Below are positions 300-6,596 of a stretch of 8,247 nt of DNA, piece by piece. The notes beneath the pieces were generated by a model. It was not told the DNA's origin. It did not search any database and saw only the letters and a program-made list of their open reading frames with translations. The stretch's first letter is position 1. Every line of letters begins with the position of its first letter. This stretch comes from Promethearchaeota archaeon. GTDB lineage: Archaea > Asgardarchaeota > Odinarchaeia > Odinarchaeales > JBHLKK01. Location: NCBI GenBank assembly GCA_048939465.1, contig JBHLPL010000086.1:1-8247 (forward strand). Direction: 5' to 3'. The position numbers and the translations under genes were made by a program.

Positions 300-469
300 G
301 AAAAATTCATCATAGTGTTCTTCACCGCGAAATTATGTTTTCTCAAGGAAGGTCAAAAATAGATGATATAGTACCAAAACCTTGCAAGCTGATAGCTAAA
401 TAGATGGATCTCAGTATCTGCCCCTCGATCAGTCAGTCCTTGGTCGGTCCGTCATCTGCCAGAAGCCCC

Positions 470-571
470 CTACGATCGGGAACCTAAGTAATCCTTTCTT
501 TTGTCAGTCTCCTCAATCACGGACTTAGATCTGATCTTGTGTTTCGCTCGATTGAGTGTTTGAGAATTCAA
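470..571 (-). CDS. Possible 33-aa micro-ORF (MNSQTLNRAKHKIRSKSVIEETDKRKDYLGSRS), TTG start
   Basis: Translated by hand; it is below the ORF-track cutoff. It lies divergent from the 641 ORF across a symmetric TTATAA, and its stop is followed by the same GGGGCTTC seen after the 931..1134 gene. No recognisable homology. Confidence 0.25.
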   Translation of the reverse strand: MNSQTLNRAKHKIRSKSVIEETDKRKDYLGSRS

Positions 572-609
572 CTGCGTCCAGAATTTTCTGGTGGAACGTT
601 TCGAGGTAA

Positions 610-615
610 TTATAA
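610..615. promoter_or_regulatory. Candidate archaeal TATA box (TTATAA), potentially bidirectional
   Basis: The palindromic TTATAA ends 25 nt before ATG 641, typical spacing for a leaderless archaeal transcript, and lies 38 nt from TTG 571 on the other strand. Confidence 0.4.
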
Positions 616-640
616 GAGTTCATCAGAAAGATATAAGATT

Positions 641-817
641 ATGAGGCAGAAGAATCACGATATTCACTATCTTGATCAGGACCTAAGAAGGCGATTTGAT
701 GAGGCCGAGAATGCTCTGGAAAAGAGGAGAAGAAGGTACGAGGAATTGAAACGAAAGTTGGAAGAGTCCCCTGGTGAGTATGAGAGCTTTGGTATACAGG
801 AGATGTTACGTGATTAG
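641..817 (+). CDS. Small charged coiled-coil hypothetical protein, 58 aa (MRQKNHDIHYLDQDLRRRFDEAENALEKRRRRYEELKRKLEESPGEYESFGIQEMLRD)
   Basis: This is the C-terminal part of the tracked ORF 539..817. ATG 641 is preferred because the TATA-like box sits directly upstream and the protein-like helical composition (E/K/R/L) starts here. Confidence 0.6.
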   Translation: MRQKNHDIHYLDQDLRRRFDEAENALEKRRRRYEELKRKLEESPGEYESFGIQEMLRD

Positions 818-826
818 CAAATTCTG

Positions 827-849
827 TTTTTGAGGAATGGTCCCCAAAA
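827..849 (+). terminator. T-tract plus small hairpin downstream of ORF 641..817
   Basis: TTTTGAGGA-ATGG-TCCCCAAAA forms a 9-bp stem with 1 mismatch, about 10 nt after the TAG, and starts within a T5 run. Confidence 0.3.
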
Positions 850-855
850 GCGTAG

Positions 856-901
856 ATTTTTGTATTAAAGGGATTCTCCACCCGGTTTACTAGCTTTTTT
901 T
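856..901 (-). repeat. Dyad element copy A (degenerate, reverse orientation)
   Basis: The minus strand reads AAAAAAA-GCTAGTAAA-N16-TTTAATACA-AAAAT, matching the architecture of copies B-D. Confidence 0.55.
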
Positions 902-930
902 GGGGCTATCCGACTATCCACGAAGCCCCT

Positions 931-1134
931 CTACCTCTCCAGGCTGAAGAGTTTATGAAACACAGAAAAGGAGATCAATGCTGTAACGACAAAAGATACG
1001 ACGTAGACCCTGATCGCCAATCCAGGTACACCCAGTAGAACCAATATTACGAACGGTACAGCCCCGATGGCCGCTGCGTTGACCAGGGAAACAATTAAGA
1101 AGAGCGCTATTTCGAGAATCTGGGTGAGGTTCAT
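931..1134 (-). CDS. Small membrane protein, 67 aa, two predicted TM helices
   Basis: ATG start with GGGGT 6 nt upstream. Two long hydrophobic stretches (ILEIALFLIVSLVNAAAIGAVPFVILVLLGV; VYVVSFVVTALISFSVF) are separated by a PG-containing turn. Confidence 0.65.
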   Translation of the reverse strand: MNLTQILEIALFLIVSLVNAAAIGAVPFVILVLLGVPGLAIRVYVVSFVVTALISFSVFHKLFSLER

Positions 1135-1178
1135 CAGCCGACCCCGTAACGGTTTTTTTTAATCTTGAATCAAATATC

Positions 1179-1514
1179 TTAGGATCCCCGTGGAGAGAAA
1201 GAACCACGGGAAGAATTCGCCGGTAAAGACGCGCATCCTTGGCTTGCTAACTTTTCTCCAGCATGCTGGACAGGGGACGCTCCTGTCGGAACACCGCTTG
1301 CCCCTGGCTCTGTCAGTAAACGAGCTTTCCTTGTCTCCACTAGCTCTTTCCACCTTTCTTGGACCCGGTTCTCCTTTGCAGTCGAGTTGAGAGACCGAGA
1401 AGACAGTCCGACGGCTGACTTCAAGCTCTTGAGGGAGATAACGCCGTAAGGGTCTACAAGTGAAAAAGGATCTCTGCGGAGGACTGGGGCTTCTTTCTCA
1501 TTGGAAATATCCAC
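1179..1514 (-). CDS. Hypothetical protein, 111 aa (GTG start); C-terminal half doubtful
   Basis: Longest ORF in this interval and co-oriented with 931..1134. The first ~68 aa look protein-like (..ENRVQERWKELVETRKARLLTE), whereas the tail is Ser/Gly/Pro-rich low complexity. No family recognised. Confidence 0.4.
   Translation of the reverse strand: MDISNEKEAPVLRRDPFSLVDPYGVISLKSLKSAVGLSSRSLNSTAKENRVQERWKELVETRKARLLTEPGASGVPTGASPVQHAGEKLASQGCASLPANSSRGSFSPRGS
1250..1270. repeat. Palindrome TCCAGCATGCTGGA with ACTTTT(C) flank, copy 1
   Basis: Perfect 14-bp palindrome at 1257-1270. ACTTTTCTCCAGCATGCTGG matches 1861-1879 apart from one extra base. Confidence 0.75.
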
Positions 1515-1635
1515 CCATCAGCTACATAAGCGTTTGTACTGGATGAGTATTCTGAAAGTACTGTCTCCGTACGAAAGACTTAATAATGCATCGTTCGTAG
1601 GGTAACTCTTCGTTTCCTGCGAACGAAAAGGGGGT

Positions 1636-1661
1636 TCACAAAGTCACAAAGGAGATCACAA
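1636..1661 (+). promoter_or_regulatory. Tandem TCACAA(AG) direct repeats and GGAGA ribosome-binding site upstream of the RHH gene
   Basis: TCACAAAG at 1636-1643 and 1644-1651, TCACAA at 1656-1661 and GGAGA at 1651-1655. The repeats are seen directly; the operator role is inferred. Confidence 0.45.
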
Positions 1662-1861
1662 TGCCGAAGAAATACACAACAATCGCGCTGCCATCCAAGA
1701 TGGTCGAATATATCGATGAGCTCGTTAAAGACCCGAAGGTCACCACCTATTTCGGTTACTCATCAAGAGCCGAACTGATCCGCACAGCCGTAGCGAAGCA
1801 TCTCAGGGAGATAGAGGAAAAGACCGAATCTAGTAAAGACAAGGATTTCCGAATTTACTGA
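1661..1861 (+). CDS. Ribbon-helix-helix (CopG/Arc/MetJ, NikR-N-terminal-like) DNA-binding protein, 66 aa
   Basis: N-terminal alternating beta-strand (YTTIALP), helix A (SKMVEYIDELVK), then the G-Y-S-S-R-A-E-L-I-R-x-A-V pattern typical of archaeal RHH proteins. Good SD sequence. No C-terminal metal-binding domain. Confidence 0.88.
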   Translation: MPKKYTTIALPSKMVEYIDELVKDPKVTTYFGYSSRAELIRTAVAKHLREIEEKTESSKDKDFRIY

Positions 1862-1889
1862 CTTTTTCCAGCATGCTGGTGAAAAAAGT
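1861..1889 (+). terminator. Hairpin immediately after RHH stop, containing palindrome CCAGCATGCTGG (copy 2)
   Basis: ACTTTTT-CCAGCATGCTGG-TG-AAAAAAGT: an extended inverted repeat with a T5 run directly after TGA. Its right end overlaps dyad element copy B. Confidence 0.5.
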
Positions 1890-1926
1890 TGGTGAATCAG
1901 GTACTCAAGCGATTTACTAACAAAAT
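1882..1926 (+). repeat. Dyad element copy B
   Basis: AAAAAA-GTTGGTGAA(1888-1896)-N16-TTTACTAAC(1913-1921)-AAAAT. Confidence 0.75.
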
Positions 1927-2034
1927 GCAACATGCAGCACACCCCTTGCAGGACCTAGGCCTGCAATCCCCAAGACCCCACCCAAGATTCAGAGTCTGGC
2001 TCAGAGCTCTATAGGAAATAGGGAGACAGATTAT

Positions 2035-2078
2035 AAAAAAGTTCGTAAAAACACGGAGAGCTCATTTACTAACAAAAT
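2035..2078 (+). repeat. Dyad element copy C
   Basis: AAAAAA-GTTCGTAAA(2041-2049)-N15-TTTACTAAC(2065-2073)-AAAAT. Confidence 0.85.
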
Positions 2079-2384
2079 CAAAGGGACAGTGATGTTCCTG
2101 CAGGCGTATCCCTTACCCTAAGAAGCGTTGAATCTGATTTTTTCATATTGAAGTTAGAAATCGGGACAGACTAGATAATCTAGCGTAGGGATTATTTTGG
2201 GGAAACTGTTGGACTTCTGCCCTATTCTTAAATAATCTCTTGAAAAATCAATTAGATTTTAAAAGCAGGTAATTCGCTTGTCATTACCCTCGAGTTTGAC
2301 TTCATTCAACCTGCTTTCAGAGCTGATAAGGCTAATATGAATTGCAGGTGTTAGCAGACTTCAGGATAATACGGGGGATAACAC

Positions 2385-2459
2385 ATGTTCAAACAAGAGG
2401 AAGAGGAAGAAGAGGAAGACTGGGAAGAAGAGGAAGAGGAAGAAGAGGAAGACTGGTGA
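2385..2459 (+). CDS. Highly acidic micro-protein, 24 aa: MFKQEEEEEEEDWEEEEEEEEEDW
   Basis: Translated by hand. ATG start with GGGGG at 2373-2377, 7 nt upstream. GAA and GAG codons alternate in one frame only, and an internal 33-bp duplication preserves the frame and ends in TGG-TGA. Confidence 0.7.
   Translation: MFKQEEEEEEEDWEEEEEEEEEDW
2391..2456 (+). repeat. 33-bp tandem duplication within the acidic micro-ORF
   Basis: GAGGAAGAGGAAGAAGAGGAAGACTGG is identical at 2397-2423 and 2430-2456. Confidence 0.9.
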
Positions 2460-2505
2460 TCTTCAGGAAGCTTACCAGAAATAAGTAGAAATAGGGGGTA
2501 AAAAG

Positions 2506-2556
2506 GTGAAGAAGGAAAAGAAGGAGAAAAAGAAAAAAGAAAAGGAAAAGCGATAA
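2506..2556 (+). CDS. Highly basic micro-protein, 16 aa: MKKEKKEKKKKEKEKR (GTG start)
   Basis: Translated by hand. GGGGG at 2494-2498 is again 7 nt before the start. The frame reads only Lys/Glu/Arg with mixed AAA/AAG and GAA/GAG codons, and there is an in-frame stop upstream at 2482. Confidence 0.55.
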   Translation: MKKEKKEKKKKEKEKR

Positions 2557-2585
2557 CTAACTAATCAGATAGTAGTTCCCTCTAT

Positions 2586-2607
2586 CTTTCTCTTTTTTGC
2601 TTTTTTG
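2586..2607 (+). terminator. Oligo-T terminator-like tract after the micro-ORF pair
   Basis: CTTTCTCTTTTTTGCTTTTTT contains two T6 runs about 30-50 nt after TAA 2556, consistent with archaeal U-tract termination. Confidence 0.55.
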
Positions 2608-2682
2608 AGGAGCCGTTTACGGAACCTCTAGAAAAGATTACACTCACAATAATACTTCAGCGATTATTTATCTACTAAGAAG

Positions 2683-2723
2683 AAGTTAGTAAAGACGTGC
2701 AGAGTTCATTTACTAACAAAAAT
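2683..2723 (+). repeat. Dyad element copy D (perfect arms)
   Basis: AA-GTTAGTAAA(2685-2693)-N15-TTTACTAAC(2709-2717)-AAAAAT. The arms are exact reverse complements, and 33/39 nt are identical to copy C, including much of the spacer. Confidence 0.85.
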
Positions 2724-2741
2724 GCATTCTTATGTCTCAAT

Positions 2742-2975
2742 TCAAACCTTCTGGTGGAAATCGTCGTTCCTGCATTCAAAGGTATACATTACAAACCCAT
2801 CAAAGGCAAAGAAGTGCATCCTTCTTACATGGTAAATTATCTTTGGATCTGCCATATCCACAAGTTCTAAGAACTGTCTTCTTTTGAATTTTACGCGATA
2901 CGAGCTTGTGTGCATTGCTGCCGCCATTGTCGCCGCCATTGTTGCCGCAACAGCTGCATTTGTTCCTCCAACCAT
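2742..2975 (-). CDS. Hypothetical protein, 77 aa, Ala-rich N-terminus
   Basis: ATG with AGGAG 10 nt upstream (2986-2990). An N-terminal (M/V)AA(T/A) repeat is followed by a compact alpha/beta-like domain (YRVKFKRRQFLELVDMADPKIIYHVRRMHFFAFDGFVMYTF). This resembles uncharacterised small prokaryotic proteins with Ala-rich N-termini (recollection, not searched). Confidence 0.7.
   Translation of the reverse strand: MVGGTNAAVAATMAATMAAAMHTSSYRVKFKRRQFLELVDMADPKIIYHVRRMHFFAFDGFVMYTFECRNDDFHQKV
2913..2948 (-). repeat. 3 x 12-bp in-frame tandem repeat
   Basis: Plus strand CATTGCTGCCGC / CATTGTCGCCGC / CATTGTTGCCGC, encoding AATM-AATM-AAAM. Confidence 0.85.
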
Positions 2976-3056
2976 TTCCCATCAACTCCTAGCAAACGAG
3001 AATAGGATATTCACATTATGGATCGTCTGCTTTTGGCAAGAACTGCAAAATTAGAG

Positions 3057-3155
3057 CTTATAAGGTTGTCTGGGTCCGGTGAAGCCTTCAGAATCCATCA
3101 GCAGACCTTAAATAGGCACGTAAAAAATCACTAGTAGCATTAACTACAATTTAAT
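3057..3155. promoter_or_regulatory. Divergent promoter region with TATA-like boxes
   Basis: CTTATAAG (3057-3064), CTTAAATA (3107-3114) and TTTAAT (3150-3155) lie between divergent starts at 2975 and 3224. The actual boxes used cannot be assigned. Confidence 0.3.
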
Positions 3156-3223
3156 CAGTAAGTTGATGCGCTTTTCTCTTCGGAGTCTCTTCAAAATTAA
3201 GGTGATGGAAGACTGAGCGGAAG

Positions 3224-4002: not shown

Positions 4003-4266
4003 TTGGGTAGGACTGTTCCCAGCTTCAGAATGGTGCTCGAAAAAGAGCTACAAAAGTGGAATGAGTTTCGTAGAGGATTGAGAATCGAGGAGCAAAATGT
4101 TCTGGATGAACTATTAAACTCTGCACGAAAACATGCAGATGCAGGTTCTCTCGTCTGTTCACCCAATGTTTCAGAGATAGTCTTCATGGCTATTCTAACA
4201 GAATTGAAAAAACAGCTCAAAAAGCTTGAGAAAACGGTCGCGGCCCTTGACATCCAGGAGGACTAG
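4003..4266 (+). CDS. Small alpha-helical PolB2-associated conserved protein (arCOG07300-like), 87 aa
   Basis: The N-terminus MGRTVPSFR, plus the W..F...L and ARKHADA motifs, match the small protein I recognise as typically encoded directly upstream of archaeal polB2. TTG start with AGGAG at 3988-3992. The family label is from recall, not from a search. Confidence 0.8.
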   Translation: MGRTVPSFRMVLEKELQKWNEFRRGLRIEEQNVLDELLNSARKHADAGSLVCSPNVSEIVFMAILTELKKQLKKLEKTVAALDIQED

Positions 4267-4268
4267 GG

Positions 4269-6596
4269 TTGAGCACCATCGAAGGTTGGATTATAGATGC
4301 CAACGTCGACAACAGCGCAGATGGAATTTCAATCTGGATTAAGCAGAGATCTGATGGAAAAGTTATAAACTCATCAAGTGACTGGAAACCGTTCTTTTAC
4401 GTCTATCCTAAGAATTCTTGTTGGGATGTTGAAAGGCTGGTTTATGTTATATCTCAACACCCTCATGTGAGTGAAGTTGAAACTGCTGGCAAATATGTAA
4501 ATCTAGGAGATCGTAAGAAAAGGAATGTGATTCGGGTCAAAACCAATGGAGTAAATTCGTTTCAAAGAGTCAGAAAAGATATTGAGAAACTGGGCAGTTT
4601 AGAACTATATAATGTCGATATTCCTTTAGAACAGATGTTTTTCTTTTCAACCCAACTCTTCCCATTCGCCTACGTCTCTTTGACTGCCGACGATAAAGGG
4701 CAGCTTAAGAGCTACAAGCTCCTAGATTCAAGAATGGAAGTGGACTATGAGGTCCCCATACTAAGAAGGCTTGTAATAATACCACAAGGAAAAGAGAAGC
4801 ACGTACTTTCACCCATCAAACCGATGAAACGAATCATCTTGAAGATTGAAAATGGTGATGCATCCGAGGATCATATTATAGAAAATGGATGTGAAAATGA
4901 ACTACTCATGGACTTATCGCAAAGAGTAAGTAGTTTAGATCCCGATGTGATATTAAGCTACGAGGGGGATGCCAAAGTCTTCCCTTACCTTCAAGCCAGA
5001 GTATCTGCAAACCAGCTTGAGAAAGAATTCTCTTTATCAAGGGATGGGGCACCCCTTTACCCGAACAACCATAGGTTCGGAGGGGGAACTTCGTATTTCA
5101 GTTACGGCAGAATGTATTACAAACCATCTTCCAAGCTAATACTTCACGGTAGACTCCACATAGACAAGACCACAGCCTTCCTATTTGAGGAGGGTGGACT
5201 TGACGGTTTGATCGAGGCCTCTAGACTCTCATTAATGCCCATCCAGCAGGCCTCAAGAATGACGGTCGGCCACATGGTTACTTCCATGCAGAACTATCAA
5301 GCTTGGATCGATGATGTGTTAATACCGGCAGTTAAAAGGCGTACTGAAGAATTTAAGACTGGAGTTGAGTTAATTCGACAGGACAGAGGCGGACTCGTTT
5401 TTGAGCCAAAGATGGGTTTTCATGAGGATGTTGCCGAGTGCGATTTCTTTATGATGTATCCGAGCATAATGCACCACTTCAACGTATCCCCAGAAACCGT
5501 GAACTGCAAATGTTGTAAGGGTGTTGGCATCAAGGTTCCTGGAATCGACCTTCATGTTTGCAGGAAACGAACAGGTTTAGTTTCAAAAGTGGTCAAAATA
5601 CTTCTTGAAAAGAGAAGAGCTTACAAGAAGCTCCTGAAGGAGGCGGAAGGCGAGAGAAAAGAGAGATTTATGGGACTTCAAGCGACAGCAAAATGGGGGG
5701 GAGTTGTGAGTTTCGGTTACCTGGGATTTAAGGGTTATCGGTTTGGTAAAATCGATGCGCACATAGCTGTTACAGCTTTTGCCCGAGAAATACTCCTAAA
5801 AAGCTCAGAAATAGCCCAAAAGAATGGCTTCGATGTGATCCATGGAATAGTCGATTCGCTTTGGCTTAAGAAGAAAACCCCAAATGCAAATCTCGAAGAC
5901 TATGAAAAACTGTCTGAAGAAATTTCAAAAGTCACAGGATTACAGTTGAAGTTCAAAGGTATCTATAAGTGGATTGTATTTCTTCACTCAACTACTAATC
6001 CGGATTTAGGCGTCCTTAATCGATATTACGGAGTGTTTAGGAACGGTAAAATAAGAGTGCGCGGTTTGGAAGTTCGGAAACACGATACTCCGCGGCTGAT
6101 CTACGATGCACAGATGGATATGATTAAGGCCCTTTCAGACGCTTCGAATCTTGAGCAATTTGTTAAGGTGATTCCTAAAGCACGACAAATACTTCAAGAT
6201 TACATTAACAGAGTTCGCAAAGGAAACGTAGACCTTGAGGATTTAATCATATGTAGACGCTTATCAAGGGATCCTTCAGAATATACTGTAGTTACAAGAC
6301 AAGCTGCCGCCGCCCAACAACTCAAATCCATAGGGATTAGGCTTCAAGCTGGGCAGAAGGCCAAATTCGTAATCTTGAATTCCAGCGCAAGGAATCCTGC
6401 AAGAAGGGTGCTTGCAGCCGAGTTGTTAGAGCGGGACCCAAATACTCTTTATGATAAAGAAGAGTACACCAAACTGCTACAGAGAGCCTTCGACAACATG
6501 TTTCCGCCATACATACAAGGAATAGACAGGAAGTCACACATTTCAAGGGAAAATCCAGGTCTAAAAGGCTTTCCTGTTAGTCATAGCAATCTATAA
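4269..6596 (+). CDS. polB2: Family B DNA polymerase, archaeal PolB2 (Dpo2-like) clade, 775 aa
   Basis: Motif A variant ECDFFMMYPSIM (D at 5442), motif B variant QATAKWGGVVSFGYLG (5679-5726) and motif C variant HGIVDS (5841-5858; the GIVDS form is characteristic of PolB2). Thumb motif RGLEVRKHD. Exo motifs lack catalytic acidic residues (SYEGDAKVFPYL). TTG start 2 nt after the upstream TAG. Confidence 0.95.
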   Translation: MSTIEGWIIDANVDNSADGISIWIKQRSDGKVINSSSDWKPFFYVYPKNSCWDVERLVYVISQHPHVSEVETAGKYVNLGDRKKRNVIRVKTNGVNSFQRVRKDIEKLGSLELYNVDIPLEQMFFFSTQLFPFAYVSLTADDKGQLKSYKLLDSRMEVDYEVPILRRLVIIPQGKEKHVLSPIKPMKRIILKIENGDASEDHIIENGCENELLMDLSQRVSSLDPDVILSYEGDAKVFPYLQARVSANQLEKEFSLSRDGAPLYPNNHRFGGGTSYFSYGRMYYKPSSKLILHGRLHIDKTTAFLFEEGGLDGLIEASRLSLMPIQQASRMTVGHMVTSMQNYQAWIDDVLIPAVKRRTEEFKTGVELIRQDRGGLVFEPKMGFHEDVAECDFFMMYPSIMHHFNVSPETVNCKCCKGVGIKVPGIDLHVCRKRTGLVSKVVKILLEKRRAYKKLLKEAEGERKERFMGLQATAKWGGVVSFGYLGFKGYRFGKIDAHIAVTAFAREILLKSSEIAQKNGFDVIHGIVDSLWLKKKTPNANLEDYEKLSEEISKVTGLQLKFKGIYKWIVFLHSTTNPDLGVLNRYYGVFRNGKIRVRGLEVRKHDTPRLIYDAQMDMIKALSDASNLEQFVKVIPKARQILQDYINRVRKGNVDLEDLIICRRLSRDPSEYTVVTRQAAAAQQLKSIGIRLQAGQKAKFVILNSSARNPARRVLAAELLERDPNTLYDKEEYTKLLQRAFDNMFPPYIQGIDRKSHISRENPGLKGFPVSHSNL

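Follow-up and report, generated by a model that had tools for sequence, protein, structure and literature searches.

The stretch of DNA analysed here (the window, 8,247 nucleotides) is the start of contig C8 (JBHLPL010000086.1) of a metagenome-assembled genome (MAG) of an Asgard archaeon, which comprises 1.96 Mb in 152 contigs. Its forward strand contains two very short open reading frames (ORFs), ORF-A and ORF-B, which encode peptides of opposite charge (Table 1). The product of ORF-A has the layout MFKQ-E7-DW-E9-DW and contains 16 glutamates, two aspartates and one lysine; 18 of its 24 residues are acidic, and its net charge is about −17. It includes two tryptophans and no cysteine or histidine, and ends with EDW directly before the stop codon. 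The product of ORF-B contains ten lysines, one arginine and four glutamates, which give it a net charge of +7. The GTG codon of ORF-B is the first start codon past an in-frame stop at positions 2482–2484. The DNA of the pair is a tandem repeat of GAA, GAG and AAG triplets. Neither of the two micro-genes is annotated, and genes this short escape standard annotation. An initial annotation made from the sequence alone had described two oppositely charged peptides encoded in tandem; its coordinates, residue counts, the 46-nt spacing, the 7-nt distances between GGGGG and the start codons, and the double T6 tract all agree exactly with the sequence.

Table 1. Features of the micro-ORF unit, its flanking repeats and the four copies of the pair in the genome.
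Feature	Position	Strand	Basis and remarks
AT-rich promoter-like motif TAATATGAATT	2333..2343	+	42–52 nt upstream of ORF-A; alignments of four paralogous upstream regions and three orthologues
Shine–Dalgarno-like GGGGG	2373..2377	+	exactly 7 nt ahead of ORF-A start
ORF-A, 24-aa acidic-tryptophan micro-protein, MFKQEEEEEEEDWEEEEEEEEEDW	2385..2459	+	ATG 2385, TGA 2457–2459
Spacer between ORF-A and ORF-B, 46 nt	2460..2505	+	sequence; contains the second Shine–Dalgarno-like site; other copies 42–52 nt
Shine–Dalgarno-like GGGGG	2494..2498	+	exactly 7 nt ahead of ORF-B start
ORF-B, 16-aa lysine-rich micro-protein, MKKEKKEKKKKEKEKR	2506..2556	+	GTG start 2506, TAA 2554–2556
Two T6 tracts, 2593–2598 and 2601–2606	2593..2606	+	sequence; T-runs 3′ of ORF-B in all four copies and orthologues
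42-nt direct repeat, left copy	2036..2077	+	83% identical to 2680–2721
42-nt direct repeat, right copy	2680..2721	+	brackets the unit, copies 644 nt apart
Third, partial copy of the repeat	1882–1926		
Window pair (contig C8)			neighbours: CorA upstream; RadA-like and PolB downstream
Pair on contig C38			acidic ORF MFRIEEDWNEEEDWNEEEEEDW; Lys-rich ORF MSKKKKEGKKKGKKK; neighbours: GDT1, FTR1, Mrr-like nuclease
Pair on contig C146			acidic ORF MFKMEEDWDEEEEDEDWDEEEEDWDEEEEEEDD; Lys-rich ORF MGKKKGKAKQKGKEKPKGQQKK; neighbours: CitMHS/ArsB-type transporter (downstream), HAD hydrolase
Pair on contig C3			acidic ORF MEEEWDEDAEFDDDWEDDW; Lys-rich ORF MGKKKAKPEGTEKAKKKCK; neighbours: proteasome subunit, basic 258-aa orphan protein

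The arrangement of signals around the pair is that expected of a small transcription unit, with a promoter-like AT motif, two micro-ORFs each led by a Shine–Dalgarno (SD) site, and an oligo-T stop. An AT-rich motif TAAT[CA]TGAAT, located about 45 nt upstream of the acidic ORF, is common to all four copies of the pair in this genome, and the consensus of the promoter-like motif in the paralogues and same-genus orthologues is aATAATgaTAATaTGAATaa. The motif is a putative B recognition element (BRE)/TATA promoter region, and the T6 tracts are a candidate archaeal oligo-T terminator. No hairpin-type terminator was found in a terminator scan, and a scan for sigma-70 promoters gave nothing useful, as expected in an archaeon. 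The transcript region does not fold better than shuffled sequence (z = −0.21), and neither an RNA family nor a tRNA was detected by an Rfam search and a tRNA scan. The translation signals of the two ORFs, initially called identical, are indeed both G5 at a distance of 7 nt; however, this form is peculiar to the window copy, and the sites of the paralogues are of the GGTGA type.

The genome carries four acidic/Lys-rich pairs, the window copy and those on contigs C3, C38 and C146. The acidic ORF comes first in all four, and the start of the Lys-rich ORF lies 42–52 nt past the acidic stop. In a six-frame translation of the whole genome, the motif [DE]2-W-[DE]2 is confined to these ORFs. Lys-rich micro-ORFs number 32 in the genome, which corresponds to 0.008 per kb-strand; at this density each acidic ORF should have about 0.001 Lys-rich neighbours within 100 nt, but all four of four have one. 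SD-like motifs are positioned at −16 to −3 of all eight micro-ORF starts, compared with 14% of random ATG or GTG codons and 44% of the first starts of long ORFs. The four pairs, the SD sites, the rarity of Lys-rich ORFs, the unique tryptophan motif and the T-runs at every copy together establish that both micro-ORFs are real genes, well past chance expectation. Two further ORFs of the genome have long Lys/Glu-rich ends: C69:23103-23216 (+), ending ...KKAAEKKKEKKKEKKKGTEKA, and C148:2420-2527 (−), ending ...SKEKKQKKETKEKKGKKK. These could represent additional Lys-rich micro-proteins or the ends of longer proteins.

Orthologues of the C38 pair are present in the two other genomes of the genus. 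The initial annotation had pointed to frame-disrupting indels as a sign against translation; none occur in the orthologues, which differ from the pair of this genome by in-frame indels of 3, 6 and 9 nt only, and by exchanges between the lysine codons AAG and AAA and the serine codons TCC and TCA. The SD sites and the promoter-like motif are retained. In another Asgard genus, represented by eight genomes, the order of the two genes is inverted: the Lys-rich ORF comes first, and the acidic ORF follows 140–145 nt downstream. Pairwise differences among the eight genomes, counted by codon position, are 98/136/291 in the Lys-rich ORF and 138/118/320 in the acidic ORF, whereas the spacer between the ORFs has an identity of only 45%. 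The predominance of third-position variation and the in-frame indels, next to a diverged spacer, indicate that both ORFs evolve as protein-coding sequences, as judged from the alignments. Despite its low identity, the spacer has a constant length of 140–145 nt throughout that genus, and there may be a structured or positional element inside it.

The distribution of the family was determined in 400 Asgard genomes with the nucleotide pattern GANGANTGGGANGAN-N(0-21)-GANGANTGG, which encodes two [DE]2-W units. The pattern matches 205 of the 400 genomes, compared with two matches of the same pattern written backwards, which served as a control; it was absent from the four genomes of the sister family within the same order. 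In a sample of 90 fetched loci, 66 matches are small ORFs of 25–84 residues (median 44.5), with a median net charge of −21, and SD-like motifs lie ahead of 60 of them. A separate Lys-rich ORF on the same strand is present within 200 nt of 26 of the 66 acidic ORFs, upstream in 20 cases and downstream in six. The density of Lys-rich ORFs beside acidic ORFs is about 17 times that in the rest of the same loci. These Lys-rich ORFs have the consensus MAKKKK[GAS]TKKKT..K..KKK, are 19–27 residues long, and mostly have a GGTGA site of their own. A basic patch such as GPKKK or MAKKKK is part of the N-terminus of 38 of the 66 acidic ORFs, 16 of which also have the separate ORF, and one relative, MAKKPKKKGKKREEEE...DWEDEEW, is a single fused chain in which MAKKPKKKGKK precedes EEDW. 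The two charges are genetically linked across Asgard archaea. The C-terminal residue is Trp, Tyr or Phe in 34 of the 66.

Because the basic partner is variable, being a neighbour in either order, fused or missing, the constant part of the module is the acidic-Trp element. The search for the acidic pattern in related archaea, which had been suggested together with a search for an adjacent Lys-rich ORF, thus recovered both, although their co-occurrence is not universal and their order varies. An obligate pair in the strict sense does not hold, because acidic homologues exist in which the basic segment is fused, lies upstream instead, or is not there at all, for example next to ABCE1 in Thermoproteota; homologues lacking an adjacent Lys-rich ORF are what the initial annotation itself had named as evidence against the pair. 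The description of the window locus as a complete bicistronic unit for two oppositely charged peptides is upheld; the unit is free-standing, and the conservation of both ORFs is of the coding type. The window pair belongs to a widespread, conserved archaeal micro-protein family.

Neither the peptides nor their relatives match any entry in Pfam, NCBIfam or PADLOC or, by profile and single-peptide search, in PDB sequences, and the family was not found described in these resources or in the literature searched, which agrees with the initial statement that no characterised system of this form is known. Look-alikes of the peptides in the ESM Atlas belong to unnamed clusters only (best score 0.78), and a search of a large protein database returned no scored match. 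The blank searches are probably due to composition-bias filters.

The acidic-Trp stretch is also part of larger proteins. In some Asgard archaea it forms a C-terminal tail on the sliding clamp PCNA (...LLAPMQPE...EDWDEEDEEFEDWDDDDE; PCNA_N Pfam match 1e-15) and on the transcription factor Spt5 (NGN and KOW domains, TIGR00405 match 2e-28, with the end ...EDWEEEEEEEDEWSKFEF). Therefore, the motif serves within finished proteins that act on DNA and RNA. The PCNA tails are 40–50 residues long and contain Asp-Trp repeats in nine loci of one Asgard genus; in another Asgard family, Spt5 has long acidic extensions at both its N- and C-termini.

A scan for three-Trp acidic stretches, with one genome per prokaryotic species, shows similar peptides beyond Asgard archaea. 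Among the matches listed, many bacterial ones fall in long proteins, and many archaeal ones are ORFs of 20–36 residues with the form M-[VIF]-F-EEE...W...EEEEW-stop, strikingly like ORF-A. The sources of these archaeal ORFs, again among the matches listed, are Bathyarchaeia, Acidianus, other Thermoproteota, Nitrososphaerales, Nanoarchaeia, Thermococcus, and Thor-, Hod- and Promethearchaeota. In at least seven loci identified by pattern, and about 13 identified by eye, the acidic ORF is positioned 49–169 nt upstream of the gene for the ribosome-recycling ATPase ABCE1 on the same strand; the 13 loci come from Bathyarchaeia, Acidianus and other Thermoproteota. A further locus has a distance of 495 nt. 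Four of the downstream genes were confirmed as ABCE1 by the presence of Fer4_RLI and two ABC_tran domains. In two Thermoprotei MAGs, a TFS/RpoM-like zinc-ribbon gene lies downstream of the micro-ORF in place of ABCE1. No acidic-Trp ORF was found upstream of the ABCE1 gene of the genome studied here.

We propose, with a probability of about one half, that positions 2333–2606 are an independent transcription unit from which a single mRNA gives rise to two oppositely charged, disordered peptides: an acidic-Trp docking effector and its Lys-rich counter-ion partner. The acidic-Trp peptide would be the core effector, a free-standing docking motif in which a polyanion is equipped with the hydrophobic anchors Phe2, Trp13 and C-terminal Trp24. 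Its carboxylates would bind Lys/Arg-rich surfaces, and the Trp and Phe side chains would enter hydrophobic pockets or form cation–π contacts. The co-expressed polycation encoded by ORF-B may neutralise or chaperone the acidic peptide, or the reverse. Both peptides are predicted to be disordered; charge attraction and Trp–Lys cation–π contacts could hold them in a charge-neutralised fuzzy complex, which would set the availability of the free polycation, a potential binder of nucleic acids or ribosomes, or of the free polyanion. The identity of the cellular target is more speculative; the tails of PCNA and Spt5 and the Thermoproteota relatives adjacent to ABCE1 point to the nucleic-acid or translation machinery. 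The unit is of broader interest as a micro-protein pair that is conserved throughout an archaeal phylum, occurs in several copies per genome, and has relatives among the peptides of further archaeal phyla. Through the use of its motif in PCNA and Spt5 tails, and through the position of ORF-A relatives next to ABCE1, it offers a concrete and testable entry point into the machinery of replication, transcription or translation in the archaea most closely related to eukaryotes.

Several points weigh against this proposal. No RNA run containing the stretch was present among the sequencing runs searched; the expression of the unit and the association of the ORF-A and ORF-B products are predictions. 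In bacteria and eukaryotes, translation is reported to abort when stretches of Asp and Glu occur near the beginning of a nascent chain (PMC9718836), which may limit the yield of full-length ORF-A product. Neither a basic patch nor a separate Lys-rich ORF accompanies 18 of the 66 Asgard acidic ORFs, and the Thermoproteota acidic ORFs inspected likewise have no detectable Lys-rich partner, so that many lineages can do without it. The sequences are of low complexity, so that homology across phyla is not provable by alignment statistics, and HMMER-based searches with the peptides return nothing.

The four copies of the pair have no neighbouring gene in common. Among 70 Asgard loci, the recurring neighbours are a basic protein of 258–315 residues, a methyltransferase–ATP-grasp fusion, TFIIB and a SAVED protein, and their recurrence reflects genus-level synteny. 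In three Asgard families, the gene for the very basic protein, for which Pfam gives no match, immediately precedes the module; C3:7538-8314 (+) of this genome is one example. It was rejected as a standing partner of the module, as there is no trace of it upstream of the window copy. The fusion of an S-adenosylmethionine methyltransferase with an ATP-grasp domain of the D-Ala-D-Ala-ligase type is 540–690 residues long and adjoins the acidic micro-ORF in 13 loci, in two arrangements, within one Asgard family. Modification of the acidic peptide by an ATP-grasp enzyme, as in graspetides or by RimK or LysX-like ligases, was considered and rejected, because the fusion is restricted to that family and this genome matches only its methyltransferase part.

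An improbable alternative is that the unit is a cis-acting translational sensor, in which the translation of a destabilising poly-Asp/Glu ORF and a stalling poly-Lys ORF reports Mg2+ or the capacity for ribosome rescue and recycling, the peptides being by-products. Consecutive acidic residues in short nascent chains are reported to destabilise ribosomes intrinsically in bacteria and eukaryotes, an effect that ABC-type factors counteract (PMC9718836, PMC11162784). The placement of acidic-Trp micro-ORFs ahead of ABCE1 in Bathyarchaeia and other Thermoproteota is what such a sensor would predict. However, the ABCE1 gene of this genome is not preceded by an ORF of this kind, and the acidic ORF of the Acidianus locus is separated from ABCE1 by an AT-rich stretch that may be a promoter of its own. 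The inverted ORF order in most Asgard genera is hard to reconcile with a relationship of leader and effector. Furthermore, the conservation of the Phe and Trp positions and of the aromatic C-terminus, and the use of the same motif as the C-terminal tail of full-length PCNA and Spt5, also speak against the sensor. The closest precedents are the acidic/proline leader peptides of the MgtL type, which are reported to sense Mg2+ through intrinsic ribosome destabilisation (PMC9718836, PMC8092293). The window pair resembles them in its very short acidic-rich ORF and in the Mg2+ transporter gene in the wider neighbourhood. It differs from them in sitting in the leader of no gene, in its putative terminator and variable neighbours, in its conserved aromatic residues, and in its second ORF. 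An MgtL-type attenuator was rejected because the unit ends in T-runs, the next gene on the + strand starts 617 nt past it, and the four copies precede different genes, which are unrelated or on the opposite strand.

Slightly less probable still is a toxin–antitoxin-like or defence module, in which the Lys-rich peptide would be a polycation harmful to the nucleoid, ribosome or membrane and the polyanion would neutralise it. Two small genes of opposite charge, apparently co-transcribed and present in several copies per genome, fit this scheme, and a SAVED-domain protein is encoded upstream in some Asgard genomes and an Mrr-like nuclease near the C38 copy. Nevertheless, roughly half of the Asgard genomes searched contain the family, in positions that are syntenic within genera, a distribution that looks vertical rather than sporadic. 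Single-chain forms containing both charges exist, as do acidic ORFs that have no Lys-rich partner. Neither the peptides nor their relatives match PADLOC, Pfam or NCBIfam, and the copies do not generally bear signatures of mobile elements; 42-nt repeats flank the window copy only.

It is very unlikely that the polycarboxylate peptide is a buffer or metallochaperone for divalent cations such as Mg2+ or Ca2+. The idea derives from the CorA gene 2 kb upstream of the window pair, GDT1 and FTR1 near the C38 copy, and the CitMHS/ArsB-type transporter downstream of the C146 copy. However, four transporters in about 24 neighbouring genes do not clearly exceed expectation, none of the transporter families is found repeatedly among the neighbours in the 70 loci, and cation binding leaves the conserved Trp and Phe residues and the Lys-rich partner unexplained. 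The link to corA that the initial annotation had drawn appears to be incidental, given the distance to the end of corA and the absence of a neighbour shared by the four copies. The notion that the ORFs arose by chance in polypurine low-complexity DNA, to which the triplet-repeat character of the region and the blank HMMER-based searches might point, can practically be dismissed in view of the four paralogous pairs with SD-like motifs at eight of eight starts, the purely in-frame indels between orthologues, the mostly third-position variation beside a diverged spacer, and the reversed-pattern control with two matches against 205 genomes.

The 42-nt direct repeat on either side of the unit has the core ATTTACTAACAAAA, which is rare in the rest of the genome, where it has three looser matches. 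Two of the repeat copies read ..FTNK.. at the start of small ORFs on the + strand (1889–2014 and 2697–2870). The repeats are absent from the other three copies of the pair and are probably not part of the module; a mobile cassette was rejected as an explanation because only the window copy is flanked by direct repeats. The region from 300 to 3200, about 2.9 kb, is nearly devoid of long ORFs in an otherwise gene-dense archaeal genome and may conceal split genes or non-coding RNAs. It includes a 77-residue ORF on the − strand (2742–2975) with a 12-nt tandem repeat at 2920–2948, an Ala/Thr/Met-rich product and no Pfam match. Metagenome contigs with 80–95% identity pile up on positions 2749–2913, and therefore this element is conserved or multi-copy. 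Further downstream, an 87-residue ORF (4003–4266, +) ends 2 nt before the TTG start of a 775-residue family-B DNA polymerase ORF (4269–6596, +) in a different frame. This arrangement may reflect a small intron, a frameshift or gene splitting at the 5′ end of polB.

Among characterised proteins, the acidic peptide invites comparison with several small acidic factors. LysW and ArgW are acidic amino-group carrier proteins that have the C-terminal sequence EDWGE and work with the ATP-grasp enzyme LysX. ORF-A resembles them in being small and acidic, with an Asp-Trp near its C-terminus, and the module has an ATP-grasp fusion as a neighbour in one Asgard family. However, a carrier function was rejected because ORF-A has neither a zinc-ribbon nor the EDWGE end, and no ATP-grasp gene adjoins any of the four copies. 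In eukaryotes, DSS1/Sem1, a disordered protein that is small and acidic and contains Trp, serves as a DNA mimic and complex-assembly factor. ORF-A is of the same size class and is likewise extremely acidic and probably disordered, with conserved Trp anchors, and many Asgard versions have a short basic N-terminus. By contrast, DSS1 has no Lys-rich partner gene, and its repeat architecture is unlike that of the ORF-A family. In a six-frame search of the 400 Asgard genomes, including this one, no match to the DSS1/Sem1 model PF05160 exceeded the cut-off, and the sole weak match (E 0.003) is in an unrelated 220-residue frame.

The eukaryotic translation factor eIF3j (Hcr1 in yeast) provides a second comparison, since its acidic motif is followed by a Lys-rich stretch. 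The window pair shares with it an acidic stretch with an anchoring Trp beside a Lys-rich stretch. The archaeal peptides differ in having only 16–80 residues; they lack the helical bundle and the KERR motif and are too short for that domain, and the window pair lies away from the ABCE1 gene of its genome. The eIF3b partner, with its RNA recognition motif (RRM), is to our knowledge absent from archaea. No match to the eIF3j/Hcr1 model PF08597 exceeded the cut-off in any of the 400 Asgard genomes, and the weak matches are in unrelated long ORFs. The conserved Trp at the centre of the eIF3j N-terminal acidic motif sits in a hydrophobic pocket that belongs to the eIF3b RRM (PMC2824034), which is a precedent for the docking mode proposed for the acidic-Trp peptide. 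A patch of ABCE1 near its nucleotide-binding domain 1 binds the N-terminal region of eIF3j as well as the archaeal stalk protein aP1, the latter through its C-terminal peptide (PMC7780240). The two systems are thus connected to ABCE1 in different ways, eIF3j by physical contact and the Thermoproteota relatives of ORF-A by a conserved gene neighbourhood. Because the same patch accepts both kinds of peptide, an ABCE1- or ribosome-directed role of the acidic-Trp peptide is, by analogy, a concrete possibility. In its specific form, which we regard as unlikely, the acidic-Trp peptide, either alone or together with the Lys-rich one, would be a hitherto unrecognised archaeal translation accessory. 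It would correspond, as a separate peptide, to the acidic-Trp and Lys-rich module at the N-terminus of eIF3j/Hcr1, or would mimic the tail of the ribosomal stalk, and would dock onto ABCE1 or the small subunit and tune ribosome recycling or re-initiation. If this were so, the N-terminus of eukaryotic eIF3j could have descended from, or converged on, this archaeal micro-protein pair.

A similarity of the Lys-rich peptide to a free histone tail was noted, and both histones of this genome are untailed; the idea was set aside because nothing links the peptide to histones. A physical model for the interaction of the two products is offered by prothymosin-α and linker histone H1, eukaryotic proteins of about 110 and 200 residues, respectively, which form a disordered polyelectrolyte complex. 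By analogy, the polyanion encoded by ORF-A and the polycation encoded by ORF-B could bind each other while both remain disordered. Prothymosin-α and H1 are not homologous to the archaeal pair and, unlike it, are not genetically linked. If the products of the window pair act as a polyanion/polycation couple, they would provide a case, in a prokaryote, of a disordered polyelectrolyte complex that is hard-wired at the genetic level.

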